From a virus (Duplodnaviria > Heunggongvirae > Uroviricota > Caudoviricetes), in the IMG/VR virus record IMGVR_UViG_2541047827_000004: DNA of 13,297 nt. One strand, given 5' to 3'. The notes under the pieces were generated by a model, which worked only from the letters and a program-made list of their open reading frames with translations, was not told the origin of the DNA and ran no database searches. Both the position numbers and the translations under genes were made by a program. Every line of letters starts with the position of its first letter. Position 1 is the first letter of the stretch. Below are positions 1-5,979 of this stretch, in pieces.

Positions 1-74
1 CGCGGATTCAGGTGCTGGTACTGAATTCACCGGGAGGCACCCGGCACCATGCAATGGCACATAGCGCCACTCTC

Positions 75-110
75 CAGCCCCTCTCCGGAGGGGCTGTTTA
101 TATTGATTTT
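75..110 (+). terminator. Intrinsic terminator-like hairpin, possibly the tR'-like late-leader terminator
   Basis: Perfect 9-bp stem CAGCCCCTC (75-83) / GAGGGGCTG (88-96) with a 4-nt loop, followed by TTTATATTGATTTT. The late promoter itself would lie upstream of the window. Confidence 0.5.
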
Positions 111-130
111 GTCAGATGTGAGTAAACTGC

Positions 131-466
131 TTATGGACTTTGTTGTTTTAGCCCATAAGGACATATTTGCAGAGTGCAACGGTTATTAAAGCATTCATTC
201 AATACGTTATCTGTATTTGTAGGGCATTCCTGGCTGTTTTTGATTAAATTCCAGAATGTTTTATTGAATGGTACTACGTTGTAAATGGTTACAGGTAGCA
301 CTTTGTTATTGAGCATGATACCTGTGTGAGTCAGTGTAAATATACTTTCAGGAGGTAAGAAAGCATCCGATTGATACCAGATTATTAATTTTATTTTACT
401 CCATATGACTGAAAAAGATATTCCGCATGATGGCTGGATAACTGTATCAATCACAATCCACTTCAT
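131..466 (-). CDS. Hypothetical protein (111 aa) in an AT-rich island; no recognisable domain
   Basis: Intact ORF with ATG at 466-464 preceded on the minus strand by AAGGAA about 5 nt upstream. Markedly AT-rich compared with flanking phage genes, and opposite in orientation to the late operon. Confidence 0.45.
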
Positions 467-726
467 TTAGTTTCCTTGTTTATGCCTTGCTGGTGATGTT
501 CTGAAAAGTATAAATGATATTTTTGATTGTAAACCATAGAGCAGAATTATTTTTCTGATGTTGTTTATTGTTTATTTAAATGCAGGGTGGTTTATATCTC
601 GTCTTGTAGTTTATCCATGCATATCTGCTTGATGATGAGGTTTTTATTTAAGGTATGGTTTTGTGTTTTTTCTGTATTACATGTCAGGTATTTTAAAGAA
701 TCATTTTTCAGATGGTGGAAAGAACC

Positions 727-915
727 ATGGCATTTAAACACTATGATGTTGTCAGGGCGGCGTCGCCGTCAGATCTTGCGGAAAAGCTGACACATAAACT
801 GAAAGAGGGCTGGCAGCCGTTTGGTAGTCCGGTGGCCATAACCCCTTATACCCTGATGCAGGCGATTGCAGCAGAAGGTGATGTGGTCGTCAGTGGTGCA
901 ACTGAGCCGGAGTGA
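727..915 (+). CDS. Small conserved lambdoid-phage protein (62 aa), possibly DUF1737-like (from memory, unverified)
   Basis: ATG at 727 (MAFKHYDVV...) within ORF 712..915. The sequence resembles small proteins I recall upstream of holin genes in E. coli prophages. Confidence 0.55.
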   Translation: MAFKHYDVVRAASPSDLAEKLTHKLKEGWQPFGSPVAITPYTLMQAIAAEGDVVVSGATEPE

Positions 916-1073
916 TACTACGTCATCGTACTGGCCCGGCATTCCAGGCCATAAAAGACGGTCTGGCAGTGGGACTAAATGCACTGACGCTGACGGATAT
1001 TACCAAAAATGCAACGTATGGCGTTGAGATAGAAAGTCTGGTGCTGGAGATAAATGCACCGGCATCATCATAA
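912..1073 (+). CDS. Possible small ORF (54 aa, GTG start) coupled to the upstream gene
   Basis: GTG at 912-914 overlaps the TGA stop of the preceding gene (GTGA overlap); open frame to TAA at 1071-1073. Not in the ORF track (under 60 aa) and no independent RBS. Confidence 0.25.
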
Positions 1074-1158
1074 AAAGTGAGCCAGTCAAATGGAAGGTAT
1101 CGTTAAACTCACCGGTAGTGTCAGTGGGTCGTCTGAGATGCCTGCATGAGTTATCAGA

Positions 1159-1190
1159 GCCATCAGTACTTAACTGGTGGCTTTTTTATT
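1159..1190 (+). terminator. Intrinsic terminator immediately upstream of the holin gene
   Basis: Stem GCCATCAG (1159-1166) / CTGGTGGC (1174-1181) with one G-U wobble and a 7-nt loop, followed by TTTTTTATTGTTG. It sits 33 nt before the holin start. Confidence 0.45.
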
Positions 1191-1222
1191 GTTGTCAGCT
1201 TCCGGATAACGGGAGACGGGGT

Positions 1223-1438
1223 ATGTACCAGATGGAAAAAATCACAACAGGTGTGTCATACACCACGTCAGCGGTGGGAACGGGCTACTGGTTCCTGCAG
1301 TTGCTGGACAGGGTTTCCCCGTCTCAGTGGGCGGCAATAGGCGTGCTGGGGAGTCTGCTGTTTGGGCTGCTGACATATCTGACTAACCTGTATTTCAAAA
1401 TCAAAGAGGACCGGCGTAAGGCGGCGCGGGGAGAGTAA
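1223..1438 (+). CDS. S: Class II holin (pinholin, phage 21 S21 / DLP12 EssD-like) with dual-start motif
   Basis: Translation [71 protein letters not shown] closely matches the remembered S21 pinholin. Two in-frame Met codons (1223 and 1232) give the antiholin/holin dual start. GGAG lies about 10 nt upstream. The long ORF 1118..1438 is an N-terminal over-extension. Confidence 0.9.
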
Positions 1439-1439
1439 A

Positions 1440-2333
1440 GTGATGAATAAAAAATATGAACTGGTTGTTAAGGGGATAAATAATTACGGGGATAAGGTTA
1501 CTGTTACTGTGAAGTCGGAAGGTGACGGGCAAGCGTCGCTGTTGTTGCCAGATGTGGCGATTAGTCTTGACCGTACTGAAGGTGCCACGCTGGAGTTTTA
1601 CGAAGCTGAGGCGAAAAAGCAGGCGAAGCAGTTTTTCATGGATGTTGCTGCCGGGTTATGTGAAGGGGATGAGCAGTCGCCGGAAAAGCGCCCCGTAATT
1701 TTAGAGGCGCAGGATGTGTTGATAACCTACAAAGGAAAGCTACCGGGAAGAATTACTTGTTCTCTGAAGATGCCGCCGTCAACACTGCGGTCAGAAAAAG
1801 ATGATGTTGAATCACGTATTGAAAAACTGGAGAGCTACGTCGTTGAGCTGAATAAGAAATGGTCGATATTGGTGCCTTCTGGCGATGAAAAGCAGTTTGC
1901 TGCGTTTGACGATTATTGTCGGAAAGTGATGAGCAGAAATCTCGCAGAGTGTTTCAGTATTCATAATGATAATTTCAGTGACCCGGAATGGGAGTGTAAC
2001 CGGCCATCCTTTGTTGTATCCGGTGATGCTGGGAAAATAACCATCTCAGAAAATGGGAAAGTAACACCTCCATCGCACCAGCACAGTGAGGAGCTCATTG
2101 AATTTGCCATTGATTACCTGAAGAACAATAAAAAGCAGGGGCTGATGAAGCGCGTTGGCCGTTGCATGGGATATCTTCAGGTAGCCGCTGAGATTGAAGC
2201 GCTGGCCAGTGGTGCTGATAAGGATGCAATTGTGCGGGAGGCTCTTCTTCGTGATTTTAATACTCCACCCTTTAAAAAAGGGCCGGCTTACTGGCTTCAT
2301 CCGGGGCTGACTTATCTTAAAGTGCGTATTTAG
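1440..2333 (+). CDS. Hypothetical soluble protein (296-297 aa) inserted between holin and endolysin; function unknown
   Basis: Long intact ORF. The likely start is ATG 1443 (GTG at 1440 also in frame), with GGGGAGAG 7 nt upstream, 4 nt after the holin stop. No predicted TM segment or signal peptide and no motif I recognise; six Cys residues. Confidence 0.75.
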   Translation: MMNKKYELVVKGINNYGDKVTVTVKSEGDGQASLLLPDVAISLDRTEGATLEFYEAEAKKQAKQFFMDVAAGLCEGDEQSPEKRPVILEAQDVLITYKGKLPGRITCSLKMPPSTLRSEKDDVESRIEKLESYVVELNKKWSILVPSGDEKQFAAFDDYCRKVMSRNLAECFSIHNDNFSDPEWECNRPSFVVSGDAGKITISENGKVTPPSHQHSEELIEFAIDYLKNNKKQGLMKRVGRCMGYLQVAAEIEALASGADKDAIVREALLRDFNTPPFKKGPAYWLHPGLTYLKVRI

Positions 2334-2369
2334 TGGGCCAGGGACAGCGGCTGAATATTTAATATATCC

Positions 2370-2903
2370 ATGAACACCAAAATCAAATACGGCCTGTCGG
2401 CTGCCGTTCTGGCGCTGATTGCCGCTGGTGCGCCTGCGCCTGACATTCTCGACCAGTTTCTGGATGAAAAGGAAGGTAACCACACCACGGCATACCGTGA
2501 TGGTGCAGGTATCTGGACCATCTGCCGTGGTGCCATCATGGTGGATGGCAAACCTGTCGTTCCGGGCATGAAGTTGTCGAAGGAAAAATGCGACCGGGTT
2601 AACGCCATTGAGCGTGATAAAGCGCTGGCGTGGGTGGAGAAAAACATCAGAGTGCCGCTGACCGAACCCCAGAAAGCGGGGATCGCGTCATTCTGTCCGT
2701 ACAACATTGGTCCCGGTAAGTGTTTCCCGTCGACGTTTTATAAACGAATTAATGCAGGTGATCGCAGGGGAGCGTGTGAGGCGATTCGCTGGTGGATTAA
2801 GGACGGTGGCAGAGACTGCCGTATTCGTTCAAACAACTGCTACGGTCAGGTATCCCGTCGTGACCAGGAGAGCGCGCTGGCGTGCTGGGGTATCGACAGA
2901 TAA
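2370..2903 (+). CDS. R: SAR endolysin (T4-lysozyme-like muramidase, phage 21 R21 / DLP12 RrrD-like)
   Basis: N-terminal weakly hydrophobic Ala/Gly-rich segment (GLSAAVLALIAAGAPAP) typical of a signal-anchor-release domain. Canonical lysozyme catalytic triad spacing E-x8-D-x5-T in EGNHTTAYRDGAGIWT. Close match to remembered RrrD. Confidence 0.9.
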   Translation: MNTKIKYGLSAAVLALIAAGAPAPDILDQFLDEKEGNHTTAYRDGAGIWTICRGAIMVDGKPVVPGMKLSKEKCDRVNAIERDKALAWVEKNIRVPLTEPQKAGIASFCPYNIGPGKCFPSTFYKRINAGDRRGACEAIRWWIKDGGRDCRIRSNNCYGQVSRRDQESALACWGIDR

Positions 2904-2992
2904 GCAGAATATTTTGCTGAAAAATAAGGTATGGCCACGCGGGCGGATAACACGAAATCCTGCGAACTGGCGAAACGTAAGTGAATAAAAGT

Positions 2993-3033
2993 AAAAACCC
3001 CGTTTGTTGGCACCAAGCGAGGTTTTGTGTTTC
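2993..3033 (+). terminator. Possible intrinsic terminator/attenuator downstream of the endolysin gene
   Basis: Imperfect stem AACCCCG (2996-3002) / CGAGGTT (3018-3024) with one mismatch, followed by a U-rich tract TTTTGTGTTTCT. Confidence 0.3.
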
Positions 3034-3059
3034 TGACCTTGAGTAAGGCAAGGGAGAAC

Positions 3060-3242
3060 ATGGCGAAGTGTAAACGAATTCTGTTGAGGTTGACTATGAA
3101 AAATGGCCTTGAACTGAAAGCGCCTGTAACTGATGACATCAGCAGAGCACTGGCTTTTGCCATTAAGTGGGTGGCGGTCGGTGTTGCTGTGTCCCCGATG
3201 CTGTATGGGCTGGCAAAACTGGTCATTGCGTTGAAATCGTGA
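3060..3242 (+). CDS. Small hypothetical protein (60 aa) with a C-terminal hydrophobic segment
   Basis: ATG at 3060 preceded by AGGGAGA. Translation [11 protein letters not shown]...[29 protein letters not shown] has a basic N-terminus and a hydrophobic C-terminus. Lies between endolysin and Rz. Confidence 0.4.
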
Positions 3243-3256
3243 AGGGAGGATTAAGC

Positions 3257-3388
3257 ATGTCAGACAAACTCATAACGCTGGCGAAGATCCTCTGTGTAAT
3301 TGTCGGCATTTCATTTTCACTAATGCTGGTTGCTCTTTTTCTTTCCATGGCCTGGATGATGTTGTCTTCGTCGGGGTTGCTGGGGTGA
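3257..3388 (+). CDS. Small hydrophobic single-TM protein (43 aa), stop overlapping the Rz start
   Basis: ATG at 3257 with GGGAGG 6 nt upstream. Translation [43 protein letters not shown]. Its TGA (3386-3388) overlaps the Rz GTG (3385-3387) as GTGA. Confidence 0.4.
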
Positions 3389-3858
3389 ACATAAACCGAA
3401 TGCTTTCCGCGTTTATCGTTATTCTGCTGGTGGCCTGTGGTGCGCTGTGGATGGCAACAGACCATTACCGTGATAACGCGATTACCTACAAAGCGCAGCG
3501 CGATAACAAAGCCAGTGAACTGAAGCTGGCGAACGCAACCATTACTGATATGCAGGTGCGCCAGCGCGATGTTGCTGCGCTCGATGCAAAATACTCGAGG
3601 GAATTAGCCGATGCGAGAGCTGAAAATGAAACTCTTCGCGCTGACGTTGCCGCTGGTCGTAAGCGCCTGCGGATCAACGCCACCTGTCCAGGCTCCGTGC
3701 GTGAAGCCCCCACCACCTCCGGCGTGGATAATGCAACCGGCCCCCAACTGGCAGACACCGTTACACGGGATTATTTCACCCTCAGAGAGCGGCTGATGAC
3801 GATGCAGAAGCAACTGGAAGGGGCGCAGGAATATATCCGTACTCAGTGCCTGAAATAA
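3385..3858 (+). CDS. Rz: Rz inner-membrane spanin (i-spanin)
   Basis: N-terminal TM followed by ...[51 protein letters not shown]..., near-identical to remembered lambda Rz. Start is GTG 3385 or ATG 3400. Confidence 0.9.
3626..3796 (+). CDS. Rz1: Rz1 outer-membrane lipoprotein spanin (o-spanin), embedded in the +1 frame of Rz
   Basis: [56 protein letters not shown]: lipobox VVSAC and proline-rich core matching remembered lambda Rz1 ([14 protein letters not shown]). Nested entirely within Rz. Confidence 0.85.
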
Positions 3859-4184
3859 GTTTTGTTGATGCGCCGTATCGTCGCTATATTCCCTCATTAA
3901 CAGAGACCGCAGCCCGACAGGGAGACTCCTCTGCGCGAGTGTGCGGGGATAATCAAAAACGATACACACCGGGGTTTACCGCGTTAACGGAGCGCGGCGT
4001 TGTCCCCTCATAGTCGCCTGTCCGGTGCGATGGTGGAAGAAACAGGAAGCTGTATTACAGAAAGTGCTACTACTGTATCCCGATGCGATGTATGTAATGT
4101 GAGTCAGATAATGGCACAGGATGTGGTGATGTGGCAGTCTGGAACACAGGATATATTGTCAGAATAAGACCCGTAGGAATAAAA

Positions 4185-4511
4185 ATGAAAAGACGCCTTT
4201 TACTACTTTTTCTGTTATCTGTCCTGGCAGTGGGATGCTCGCAGCAAAAAGCTGATGAGCCCCGGCAATTAGTGACGGTGTATCCACGATATCCGGAATA
4301 TGCTGCAGCAAATTATATCAAGGGGCTGGTTGAGGTTAAGTTCGATATTGGTGCTGATGGGACTGTGACACGGATCGTTTTTCTCCGCTCAGAGCCTCAT
4401 AATTTGTTTCGTGATGAAGTGGTGAAGGCCATGGCGAAATGGCGATTTGAAAAGAATCGCCCCTGTCAGGGAGTGAAGAGACAATTTATCTTTACGCCGT
4501 CACGTCCTTGA
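4185..4511 (+). CDS. Small lipoprotein with a TonB C-terminal-like domain (109 aa)
   Basis: ATG 4185 with AGGAA upstream. Signal peptide plus lipobox (LAVGC). The mature part, VYPRYPEYAAANYIKGLVEVKFDIGADGTVTRIVFLRSEPHNLFRDEVVKAMAKWRF, aligns motif-for-motif with the E. coli TonB C-terminal domain ([53 protein letters not shown]). Confidence 0.75.
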   Translation: MKRRLLLLFLLSVLAVGCSQQKADEPRQLVTVYPRYPEYAAANYIKGLVEVKFDIGADGTVTRIVFLRSEPHNLFRDEVVKAMAKWRFEKNRPCQGVKRQFIFTPSRP

Positions 4512-4603
4512 TGCTTCCAGGTAGAGAGGGGCTGGACGCAGGAGAAAAATGAAAGAGCCAGCGGTTATATTTTTGTCATGGCTGACGAGGAATGATGGAA
4601 GAA

Positions 4604-4626
4604 GGCGTTGTATGCCACACAACGCC
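4604..4626. terminator. Hairpin between convergent genes (possible bidirectional terminator)
   Basis: Perfect 8-bp stem GGCGTTGT (4604-4611) / ACAACGCC (4619-4626) with a 7-nt loop; T-rich sequence follows on the + strand. The U tracts are interrupted, so it is weak as a canonical terminator. Confidence 0.3.
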
Positions 4627-4633
4627 TCACTGT

Positions 4634-4813
4634 TCATTTCTTCTTTTTCTCTGGTGGAACCCGATGAATAAGAGTTGCACTGGTTTCCGATGAGATGGCG
4701 ATATACTCGGGCAAAGTATGCTGGCAGTTTTCCAACTGGTCAAAAATACCTGCTCTCGTCTGTTGCAATGCCTGCAGCATGCGGCGGCAATGCGCCTTGC
4801 TTTTACTAACCAT
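4634..4813 (-). CDS. Hypothetical small protein (59 aa)
   Basis: ATG at 4813-4811 preceded on the minus strand by GAGGAAGGAAAG. The longer 117-aa ORF (4634..4987) overlaps the next minus-strand gene and is probably an over-extension. Confidence 0.3.
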   Translation of the reverse strand: MVSKSKAHCRRMLQALQQTRAGIFDQLENCQHTLPEYIAISSETSATLIHRVPPEKKKK

Positions 4814-4874
4814 CTTTCCTTCCTCTATCAGTCGCTGCGTGAACTCATCATGTAATACCAGGTAAATGCGGATG

Positions 4875-5126
4875 TTATCGGTTTTGGCTACGCAGCATAG
4901 TACAAAACGGACAGGTGCATCCCGGGACGGGGGAGGCGTCACATGTCCCTGTGATGGTTGTTCCGGGTAATGCACTGTGTGGGGCATAAAAATGTCCGAT
5001 AATTTTACTTTCTACCGCAGTTAGTTGATTCGTTGGTCCTGGTAGCACATTGGGCGAGGATTTAAATGCCAGGCAACTGAAGGATGATGTTGCAAGGGAG
5101 ATAGCGAGAATATTTCTGATTTTCAT
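4875..5126 (-). CDS. Hypothetical secreted Cys-rich small protein (83 aa)
   Basis: ATG at 5126-5124 with AGAGG about 9 nt upstream. N-terminal signal-peptide-like MKIRNILAISLATSSFSCLA; C-terminal Cys cluster TGTCDASPVPGCTCPFC. Lies just inside cos in the bor-like moron slot. Confidence 0.4.
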   Translation of the reverse strand: MKIRNILAISLATSSFSCLAFKSSPNVLPGPTNQLTAVESKIIGHFYAPHSALPGTTITGTCDASPVPGCTCPFCTMLRSQNR

Positions 5127-5262
5127 TTGATGATGCCTCTGTGTGAAATGACGGTAAACGACGCACTTGTGCCGGCACATAATAGCAAGCACCATAATAG
5201 ATCAGATTCGATTCTTGCTGTAAGTGATAATTATTCTCGTTTTCGGGTCCTTTCCGTCGATC

Positions 5263-5425
5263 CAACAGGTTACGGGGCGGCGACCTCGCGGGTTTTCGCT
5301 ATTTATGAAAATTTTCCGGGAACCATGTCCGGTTTCTCTTCAAGTTAACTATATGAAAAATAAAAAAAGAGGTCTTCTGTGAACCGGACATGCACAAAAA
5401 ATAGACATGTAAGCCGGACATGACC
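5263..5425 (+). promoter_or_regulatory. cos: cos site: cosN cohesive-end site (GGGCGGCGACCT, 5275..5286) plus cosB with three terminase-binding-like repeats
   Basis: CAGGTTACGGGGCGGCGACCTCGCGGGTTTTCGCTATTTATGAAAATTTTCCGG matches the lambda cos sequence as I remember it. Downstream repeats CATGTCCGG (5324-5332, inverted) and CCGGACATG (5384-5392 and 5414-5422) flank an AT-rich spacer. Located immediately upstream of the terminase genes. Confidence 0.85.
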
Positions 5426-5469
5426 GGTTTTGTTGTGATTGTGAAGTGAGAGTTTTTGCGAGGTGAGGA

Positions 5470-5979
5470 GTGGCTACGCAGACTGAAGTTGCCAGGCATT
5501 TAAGTCTGACCGATCGCCAGCTTCGCAGATTGCAGAAATTGCCGGGTGCCCCGATATCGAATAAGCGAGGGCAACTGGATCTGGATGCCTGGCGCGATTT
5601 TTACATATCGTATCTGAGAAGAAGTAAAAACGATGTGCCTGATGGCGATAGCGAAGACGACTATGAGGAGAAATTGCTTATTGCCAGATGGGAACTGACA
5701 GCAGAACAGGCTGTTACACAGCAGTTAAAAAATGAGGTGTCAAAAGGAAAACTTATTGATACCGGGTTCTGTATTTTTGCCCTCAGCAAGCTGGCAATGG
5801 CGTTATCCAGTACGCTTGATTCCATCCCTTTATCCATGCAGCGACAGTTTCCTGATTTAACACCGCGCCATCTTGACCATCTGAAAACCCTTATTGCGAA
5901 GGGGGCAAATCAGTGTGCGCGGGCGGGGGATAAATTACCGGATTTACTCGATGAATATATCAGAGCAACAACTGAATAA
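5470..5979 (+). CDS. nu1: Terminase small subunit (Nu1 / phage 21 gp1 family)
   Basis: GTG start at 5470 with GAGGTGAGGAG upstream. The C-terminal two-thirds resemble Nu1-family proteins; the N-terminal putative DNA-binding region is divergent. The 3' end overlaps the terminase large subunit start, as in lambda. Confidence 0.8.
   Translation: MATQTEVARHLSLTDRQLRRLQKLPGAPISNKRGQLDLDAWRDFYISYLRRSKNDVPDGDSEDDYEEKLLIARWELTAEQAVTQQLKNEVSKGKLIDTGFCIFALSKLAMALSSTLDSIPLSMQRQFPDLTPRHLDHLKTLIAKGANQCARAGDKLPDLLDEYIRATTE

Follow-up and report, generated by a model that had tools for sequence, protein, structure and literature searches.

Accessory genes between the holin, endolysin and spanin genes of a lambdoid Escherichia coli lysis module

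In this study, we analyzed a 13,297-nucleotide stretch of viral DNA (Caudoviricetes; IMG/VR record IMGVR_UViG_2541047827_000004), hereafter the window, and focused on the lysis module at positions 1223-3858. The module carries a pinholin gene (S), a long ydfR-family gene, an endolysin gene (R), two small open reading frames (ORFs), orfA and orfB, and the spanin genes Rz and Rz1. It very probably serves for the lysis of cells that carry a lambdoid E. coli prophage of the 933W/Qin type; its accessory genes, in the interval between S and R (S/R slot) and in that between R and Rz (R/Rz slot), are probably facultative and co-transcribed with the lysis genes.

Genes of the lysis module

Genes were called from a six-frame ORF list combined with profile searches against Pfam and PHROGs. 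All of them lie on the plus strand, and the profile scores of all cassette genes are far beyond chance. The module is composed as follows.

1223-1438, plus strand: S21-type class II holin (pinholin), 71 aa (PF04971, E 7.2e-33)
1440/1443-2333, plus strand: YdfR-family protein, long form, 296 aa (ATG 1443) or 297 aa (GTG 1440) (PF07041, phrog_1085)
2370-2903, plus strand: signal-anchor-release (SAR)-type endolysin, GH24 lysozyme of the RrrQ/933W R lineage, 177 aa (PF00959, E 7e-24)
3060-3242, plus strand: orfA, small membrane ORF, 60 aa (phrog_1115, E 1.9e-46)
3257-3388, plus strand: orfB, small membrane ORF, 43 aa (phrog_4906, E 2e-23)
3385-3858, plus strand: Rz, i-spanin (PF03245, E 2.2e-47; phrog_13)
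3611-3796, plus strand: Rz1, o-spanin lipoprotein, inside Rz in another frame (PF06085, E 4.4e-20)

The original prediction had described a cassette of pinholin, SAR endolysin and spanins in which a 0.9-kb gene separates the first two and about 480 bp with two small ORFs separate endolysin and Rz. This cassette type was borne out by PF04971, PF00959, PF03245 and PF06085 and by the identities and structure matches given below. The split was also confirmed: the ydfR-family ORF measures 894 bp (1440-2333; likely start ATG 1443), and the R-to-Rz interval (2904-3384) is 481 bp long and holds orfA and orfB. The genes share one orientation, as proposed. The minimal gaps that had been claimed were found at some junctions, with 4 nt between S and ydfR, 14 nt between orfA and orfB and an overlap of the orfB stop with the GTG start of Rz, but 36 nt lie between ydfR and R and 156 nt between R and orfA.

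The PF04971 match ('Bacteriophage P21 holin S') covers 63 of the 64 profile positions of the holin. The protein is 100% identical to 933W S; identity is 92% to the annotated pinholin of phage 434 and 82% to EssD of DLP12. When the transmembrane domains (TMDs) were assessed at the level of composition, only TMD2 (1.7) was above the hydrophobicity cut-off, TMD1 (residues 8-28) was weakly hydrophobic, and a charged C-terminal tail of 13 residues followed TMD2. Family membership, identity and transmembrane (TM) composition thus support S as an S21-type pinholin, for which depolarization through small holes impassable to the endolysin is predicted. Translation could also begin in frame at 1232, with a 68-aa product; the Met codons M1 and M4 are in frame, and the extension reads Met-Tyr-Gln, without Lys. 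The dual-start motif Met-Lys-Ser-Met of S21 gives a longer antiholin with an extra positive charge. EssD and EssQ start with MKSM, and the holins of 434 and H-19B lack M1. Holins of the MKSM, MYQM and M1-less types each occur with and without DUF1327, the N-terminal domain of the YdfR family, and on this ground we rejected a role of the accessory genes in making up for a missing Lys-bearing antiholin start.

The R product shares 93% identity with 933W R and 89% with K-12 RrrQ, but its identity to RrrD and 434 R is only 33%. Its structure matches are the RrrD entry 4ZPU (E 1.6e-15) and the 165-aa lysozyme chain of PDB 3HDE (E 8e-16), which we take to be phage 21 R. Residues 7-24, after the basic MNTKIK, form an Ala/Gly-rich segment (YGLSAAVLALIAAGAPAP), and the catalytic triad E35-x8-D44-x5-T50 is invariant at all three positions in the alignment with RrrD and 434 R. 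These features support R as a SAR-type endolysin, with predicted Sec-dependent tethering to the membrane and release and activation driven by depolarization. The signal-anchor segment lacks Cys, so control would be expected to follow R21 and not P1 Lyz, which is caged by a disulfide.

The spanin genes show the embedded two-component architecture, with Rz1 lying wholly inside Rz. Rz has an N-terminal TM segment (Kyte-Doolittle hydropathy (KD) of the TM window 2.46) and an alternative start at ATG 3400, and Rz1, as read from its sequence, has a signal peptide, a VSAC lipobox and a Pro-rich mature part.

Relatives of the module and contents of the two slots

The arrangement is already known from K-12, reference phages and hundreds of genomes, where the accessory genes are annotated 'YdfR family' and 'hypothetical protein'. 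Of 5426 complete E. coli genomes, 405 contain a 3.5-kb block (1100-4600) of the window at about 98.5% identity, and E. coli NZ_CP030768 is 99.07% identical to the window over 7.6 kb. In the phage collection, this holin type occurs in 434 records and DUF1327 in at least 101. The DUF1327 gene directly follows the holin gene in H-19B, BP-4795, mEp460, YYZ-2008 and many Stx1a/Stx2c phages, and the order S-DUF1327-R is found in H-19B, BP-4795, mEp460, Tritos and the Qin prophage of K-12. The implication that such a split is unusual was not upheld by these frequencies. Contiguous S-R-Rz genes had been taken as the norm, which is correct for 434 and DLP12 but not for Qin, one of the phages proposed for comparison, which itself has ydfR between essQ and rrrQ. 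For annotation, the region is a standard Shiga toxin (Stx)-phage/Qin-type lysis module, and the 'split' layout is common. A comparative study of 279 Stx phages described the pin-holin and the SAR endolysin as a conserved lysis cassette without discussing intervening genes (PMC8136144). In the literature searched, DUF1327 is scarcely mentioned, and no report of ydfR together with a holin was found.

The likeness to individual phages differs along the module. Phage 933W (S-R-ant-Rz/Rz1-bor) shares S, R and the Rz/Rz1 type with the window, has an orfB homologue (44 aa) directly before Rz and also carries accessory cargo between R and Rz. However, its S and R genes are adjacent (4-nt gap) without a DUF1327 gene, ant stands in place of orfA, and bor in place of the TonB_C gene. 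Relative to 933W, the ydfR gene of the window is thus a clean extra gene, 4 nt after S. Qin (essQ-ydfR-rrrQ-rzpQ/rzoQ) and Tritos resemble the window in having an S21-type holin, a DUF1327 gene and then the 177-aa lysozyme (89%). In contrast, Qin YdfR, with 103 aa, is limited to the N-domain (43% identical), and the stop codon of its gene overlaps the start of rrrQ; Qin has no small ORFs before the spanin genes, and its i-spanin is of the DUF2514 type instead of PF03245.

H-19B, BP-4795 and the Stx1a phages share the order S, DUF1327 gene, R, small TM ORF and Rz, with about 90% nucleotide identity over S, the N-part of DUF1327, R and Rz. Homology to H-19B covers 1229-1778, 2364-3058 and 3379-3848. 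The differences lie in the last two thirds of the 297-aa ORF and in orfA with orfB: H-19B has the short form of the DUF1327 gene (homology ends at 1778) and a 32-aa TM peptide before Rz, and lacks orfA and orfB. The breakpoints (1778, 2364, 3058 and 3379) lie at gene or module borders.

Phages 21, DLP12 and 434 share the holin family (82-92% identity), the mechanism class and the Rz/Rz1 family (83% nucleotide identity from 3463). On the other hand, their genes are contiguous and overlapping, and their 165-aa lysozyme is of another lineage. The window shares with 434 only S and, starting at 3463, the rest of Rz. The description of the intervening genes as inserted therefore fits the ydfR gene against 933W, but not the comparison with 434 and DLP12, where the whole of 1441-3463, from the S stop codon to the inside of Rz and including the lysozyme lineage, is replaced rather than interrupted by two simple insertions.

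We also examined 80 IMG/VR loci with the long YdfR form and judged the flanks where the contig reaches. S was always upstream and R always downstream. The R/Rz slot contained orfA with orfB, orfB with a 37-aa orfA-like ORF, a 32-aa TM ORF of the H-19B type, or nothing (2 loci), and a small TM ORF preceded Rz in 63 of the 65 loci with Rz in range. Elsewhere, the slot contains Ant or an N6_N4 DNA methyltransferase, the latter after an orfB homologue in prophage L013. Since the contents of the slots vary and the breakpoints fall at gene or module borders, the S/R and R/Rz slots are two recombination-tolerant slots of a well-known cassette. Comparison with DLP12, Qin and the Stx phages, which the original prediction had proposed, identified the ydfR-type gene as common to Qin and many Stx phages. 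Close relatives thus carry the same genes as a conserved module, although not one with a well-characterized function.

Properties of the accessory genes

The DUF1327 domain (PF07041, E 2.8e-39) occupies residues 2-101 of the YdfR-family protein, and phrog_1085 matches the ORF end to end (E 1e-188). In the family alignment, the DUF1327 N-domain (about 1-75) is followed by a linker that includes a coiled coil, then by a middle part of variable sequence and finally by a conserved C-module (about 185-296). The hydropathy check gave no TM segment, and the protein is predicted to be soluble and cytoplasmic. The family is restricted to Escherichia and Shigella. The exhaustive HMMER search with the C-module returned 18 representatives among 1.84 billion proteins and no informative remote homologue. 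The most distant relatives (28-30% identity) retain the two-domain architecture, and the alignment that includes them has 16 invariant columns, all in the C-module; the invariant residues include H214, G239-R240, L245-Q246, A248-A249, P276, K278, W284, P287-G288 and Y291-L292. A species-representative genome scan yielded three loci only, all in Escherichia or Shigella. When the family alignment was searched as a profile against PDB sequences, no match was better than E 0.1, and Pfam at E <=10 gave no meaningful matches for the C-module, orfA or orfB. NCBIfam has no family for any accessory protein, and PADLOC gave no meaningful defense-family match for any of them.

In three E. coli prophages (L012-L014; 3001-4189), S is directly followed by a 213-aa gene that encodes the C-module on its own; next come a 75-aa DUF1327 gene of strongly diverged sequence and, on the opposite strand, a 95-aa ORF. 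The two YdfR modules thus occur in some prophages as separate adjacent genes in reverse order, still between S and R. Because the two-domain architecture is kept in the 28-30%-identical relatives and the split-gene prophages retain both modules, the long form is probably ancestral, and the much-cited 103-aa YdfR of K-12 is probably a truncation. RefSeq labels the counterpart of window 1443-2333 in NZ_CP030768 (locus L003, 3344-3679) 'YdfR family protein, incomplete, missing C-terminus', a partial pseudogene called by the Prokaryotic Genome Annotation Pipeline (PGAP). However, the homologous ORF is intact there (297 codons) and differs from that of the window by in-frame substitutions only. The pseudogene call looks like an annotation artefact, probably arising from a reference family model built on short YdfR forms.

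The model of the N-domain has a beta-beta-beta-alpha fold with recurrent structural matches to the double-stranded RNA-binding domain (dsRBD), uS5 and hibernation factors, and the fold is weakly dsRBD-like. In a 2026 study, both RNase E (1-597) and RNase G were reported to interact with residues 1-72 of YdfR from Qin in two-hybrid assays (PMC13232886). In the same study, Rne 1-598 and DNase-resistant nucleic acid (RNA) co-purified with YdfR (Strep-tagged in the case of Rne), YdfR overexpression altered few transcripts, and almost no ydfR reads were seen in K-12 under standard growth (PMC13232886). The dsRBD-like model fits the reported binding of RNase E and RNA. From the 43%-identical homologue and this weak fold match, the DUF1327 N-domain is most likely a module that binds RNA and RNase E/G. 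With such an N-domain, an action of the protein on RNA metabolism late in infection is more plausible than one on the envelope.

The start region of R differs with the presence of a DUF1327 gene. In 933W, the end of S supplies the Shine-Dalgarno sequence of R (GGGGAGAG), and this is lost wherever a DUF1327 gene precedes R. In these cases, R has an AU-rich conserved leader (AAATATCC-ATG) or its start overlaps the ydfR stop codon, as in Qin. The 36-nt ydfR-R junction of the window (2334-2369) is of the AU-rich type without a Shine-Dalgarno sequence, and the corresponding junctions of the compared loci L007, L010 and L005 follow one or the other pattern. Such a junction may change the translation of R or may be an RNase E-sensitive site.

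The two ORFs of the R/Rz slot are small membrane proteins by prediction. orfA has a basic N-terminus, one C-terminal TM segment (KD 1.88) and a GGGAG Shine-Dalgarno sequence before ATG 3060, with GTG 3027 and ATG 3096 as alternative starts. It is annotated as hypothetical in NZ_CP030768 and PhiR12_1, and a 37-aa relative lies directly before Rz in other prophages. orfB comprises little beyond one TM segment (KD 2.89) and has a GGGAGG Shine-Dalgarno sequence. DNA like orfB is present in 276 phage records, and its protein family comprises 129 clusters, all from E. coli, with the length held at 43-44 aa. An intact 44-aa homologue (MISDKLITLVKSLCVLVGISFLVMLVAIFFSTAWRVLTLSGLVG) lies at about 27435-27569 of the 933W record (NC_000924.1) between ant and Rz; it is unannotated, and 7 nt separate its end from the annotated start of Rz. 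A different 32-aa TM ORF occupies the orfB position in H-19B and Stx2_95. ORFs of the orfB type before Rz are widespread and often unannotated, as in the 933W reference and many Stx-phage records, which is the one mildly new point here. By their predicted topology and position, orfA and orfB are possible modulators of lysis timing or of the spanins. P2 LysA, Mu releasin and T4 RI are small inner-membrane lysis regulators encoded inside cassettes, beside endolysin or spanin genes. They are cited here by analogy: no sequence similarity of orfA or orfB to these three proteins was found, and membership is not claimed.

Rough pairwise ratios of nonsynonymous to synonymous substitution rates (dN/dS) were 0.05 for S, 0.07-0.13 for R, 0.21 for the YdfR C-module, 0.43 for orfB, 0.53-0.62 for the YdfR N-part and 0.37-0.44 for Rz, where the value is raised by the embedded Rz1. 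The accessory genes (0.21-0.62) are constrained, but less than the core genes S and R (0.05-0.13).

Transcription, interpretation and neighboring genes

Upstream of the module lies the following element.

1-105, plus strand: STnc100-family RNA, 3' part, 5' end cut off (Rfam RF02076, 73.8 bits, E 1.5e-14)

A strong, terminator-like hairpin with a T-run (75-96) ends this RNA, and a Q antiterminator gene is located directly upstream in the 99%-identical genome NZ_CP030768. The STnc100-type RNA is probably the short leader and terminator of a Q-dependent late promoter. A crude consensus scan found no sigma-70-like promoter on the plus strand of window 1-5600, and no convincing terminators flank the accessory genes, where the scan gave only weak hairpins (2292-2309 and 3001-3019). 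The most economical reading is therefore that the late promoter drives co-transcription of the cassette.

According to our preferred reading, the cassette would be part of a Q-dependent late transcript, reached by read-through past the leader terminator. As in the homologous phage 21 system, the pinholin would build up in the inner membrane, trigger and collapse the membrane potential; depolarization would then free and activate the membrane-tethered SAR lysozyme. The Rz/Rz1 complex would finally disrupt the outer membrane, again by homology. The S/R slot would supply a full-length two-domain YdfR protein that acts on late RNA metabolism. The R/Rz slot would supply two small inner-membrane proteins, at a place where other phages put Ant, a methyltransferase, tiny TM ORFs or nothing. 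These accessory genes would be transcribed with the lysis genes, facultative and dispensable for the basic lysis pathway.

Several points weigh against this reading. The tight spacing (4 nt after S; the overlap of the orfB stop and the Rz start) and the near-universal small TM ORF before Rz (63/65 loci) could mean a dedicated lysis role. The RNase E interaction was reported for the 103-aa Qin protein only, which is 43% identical, and few transcripts were changed (PMC13232886). In addition, internal promoters could escape a crude consensus search.

It is unlikely, but conceivable, that the intervening genes are dedicated timing regulators of the pinholin/SAR-endolysin pathway. In that case, the inner-membrane action of orfA and orfB would be antiholin-like, release-controlling or spanin-modulating, and YdfR would tune R expression, for instance by having RNase E cut the AU-rich R leader that lacks a Shine-Dalgarno sequence. 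Their location and orientation inside the cassette, the tight or overlapping junctions and the single TM segment of both orfA and orfB are consistent with such a role. So are the small TM ORF before Rz in 933W as well as in the IMG/VR loci, the complete (100%) linkage of the long YdfR form to S and R, and the loss of the R Shine-Dalgarno sequence, with an AU-rich leader or a stop overlap, when a DUF1327 gene is present. The binding of RNase E by YdfR points in the same direction (PMC13232886).

Precedents exist in P2, where lysA lies between the endolysin and spanin genes, and in Mu, where releasin acts on a SAR endolysin. However, the genes are facultative: S and R are adjacent in 434, DLP12 and 933W, about three quarters of the phage records with this holin show no DUF1327 match, and R is directly followed by Rz in 2 IMG/VR loci. 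Unrelated cargo (Ant, methyltransferase) occupies the same slot, purifying selection is weaker than on S and R, and the presence of DUF1327 does not track the start type of the holin N-terminus, which argues against a replacement for a lost antiholin start.

A broader form of this idea, which we regard as quite unlikely, is that the two-domain YdfR and the small TM ORFs before Rz constitute an unrecognized regulatory layer of pinholin/SAR-endolysin lysis. YdfR would then make the expression of R depend on how RNase E processes the late transcript, and the small TM proteins would time holin triggering, SAR release or spanin activation. The reported RNase E binding of YdfR suggests a link of late-gene RNA metabolism to lysis; if confirmed, this link would bear on the timing of Shiga-toxin release, because the stx genes sit just upstream of such cassettes.

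It is less probable still that the intervening genes are morons for lysogenic conversion or defense, expressed by the prophage and unrelated to lysis, like bor, lom, IraM and the TonB-like lipoprotein. The surroundings are indeed rich in cargo, with an IraM-type ORF (131-466, opposite strand) and a TonB_C lipoprotein gene (4185-4511), Ant or a methyltransferase occupies the slots elsewhere, and the limitation of the family to Escherichia and Shigella would also suit this origin. On the other hand, no promoter-like site was detected on the plus strand and no convincing terminators flank the genes in the scan described above, the orientation is that of the late operon with 4-nt and overlapping junctions, and PADLOC gave no defense-family matches. 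The near absence of ydfR reads in K-12 under standard growth is also unfavorable to prophage expression (PMC13232886).

Finally, a view of the 297-aa ORF as a pseudogene and of the extra ORFs as spacers without coding function or as remnants in decay is highly improbable: the PGAP label in NZ_CP030768, the truncated 103-aa form in Qin and the dN/dS of 0.5-0.6 for the YdfR N-domain would fit decay, but the ORF is intact in the window and in NZ_CP030768 with in-frame substitutions only, phrog_1085 matches it end to end, relatives at 28-30% identity keep the two-domain architecture and the 16 invariant C-module columns, the C-module has a dN/dS of 0.21, orfB keeps its length of 43-44 aa across 129 clusters, and the genes are present in phage records such as PhiR12_1, mEp460, Tritos, H-19B and BP-4795.

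Several neighboring genes accompany the module. The IraM-type ORF (131-466, minus strand, 111 aa) is located upstream of S in a low-GC island (31-35%), and its counterpart in NZ_CP030768 is annotated as anti-adapter protein IraM. It looks like a moron of host-regulator type between Q and the lysis genes. Further downstream, a DUF1737 ORF (712-915) and the ORF at 912-1073 match the first approximately 58 and the last approximately 50 positions of the 634-aa phrog_143, and in phage 434 they align to the two ends of the gene for a SASA-family carbohydrate (sialate O-acetyl) esterase. Since only the two ends are matched, the esterase gene that is usual upstream of S in Stx-type phages carries an internal deletion of about 1.5 kb here.

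Downstream of the cassette, the following gene precedes lambda-like terminase and head genes.

4185-4511: lipoprotein with a TonB C-terminal domain, 108 aa (PF03544, E 7e-13)

This gene sits where 933W, 434 and DLP12 have bor on the opposite strand. Its family, phrog_1267, carries the PHROGs label 'Rz-like spanin', which looks mistaken. Within 1100-4600, the window differs to any sizeable extent from the closest E. coli genome only at about 3985-4001, where the non-coding DNA between Rz and the TonB_C gene has a 17-nt indel with flanking mismatches.

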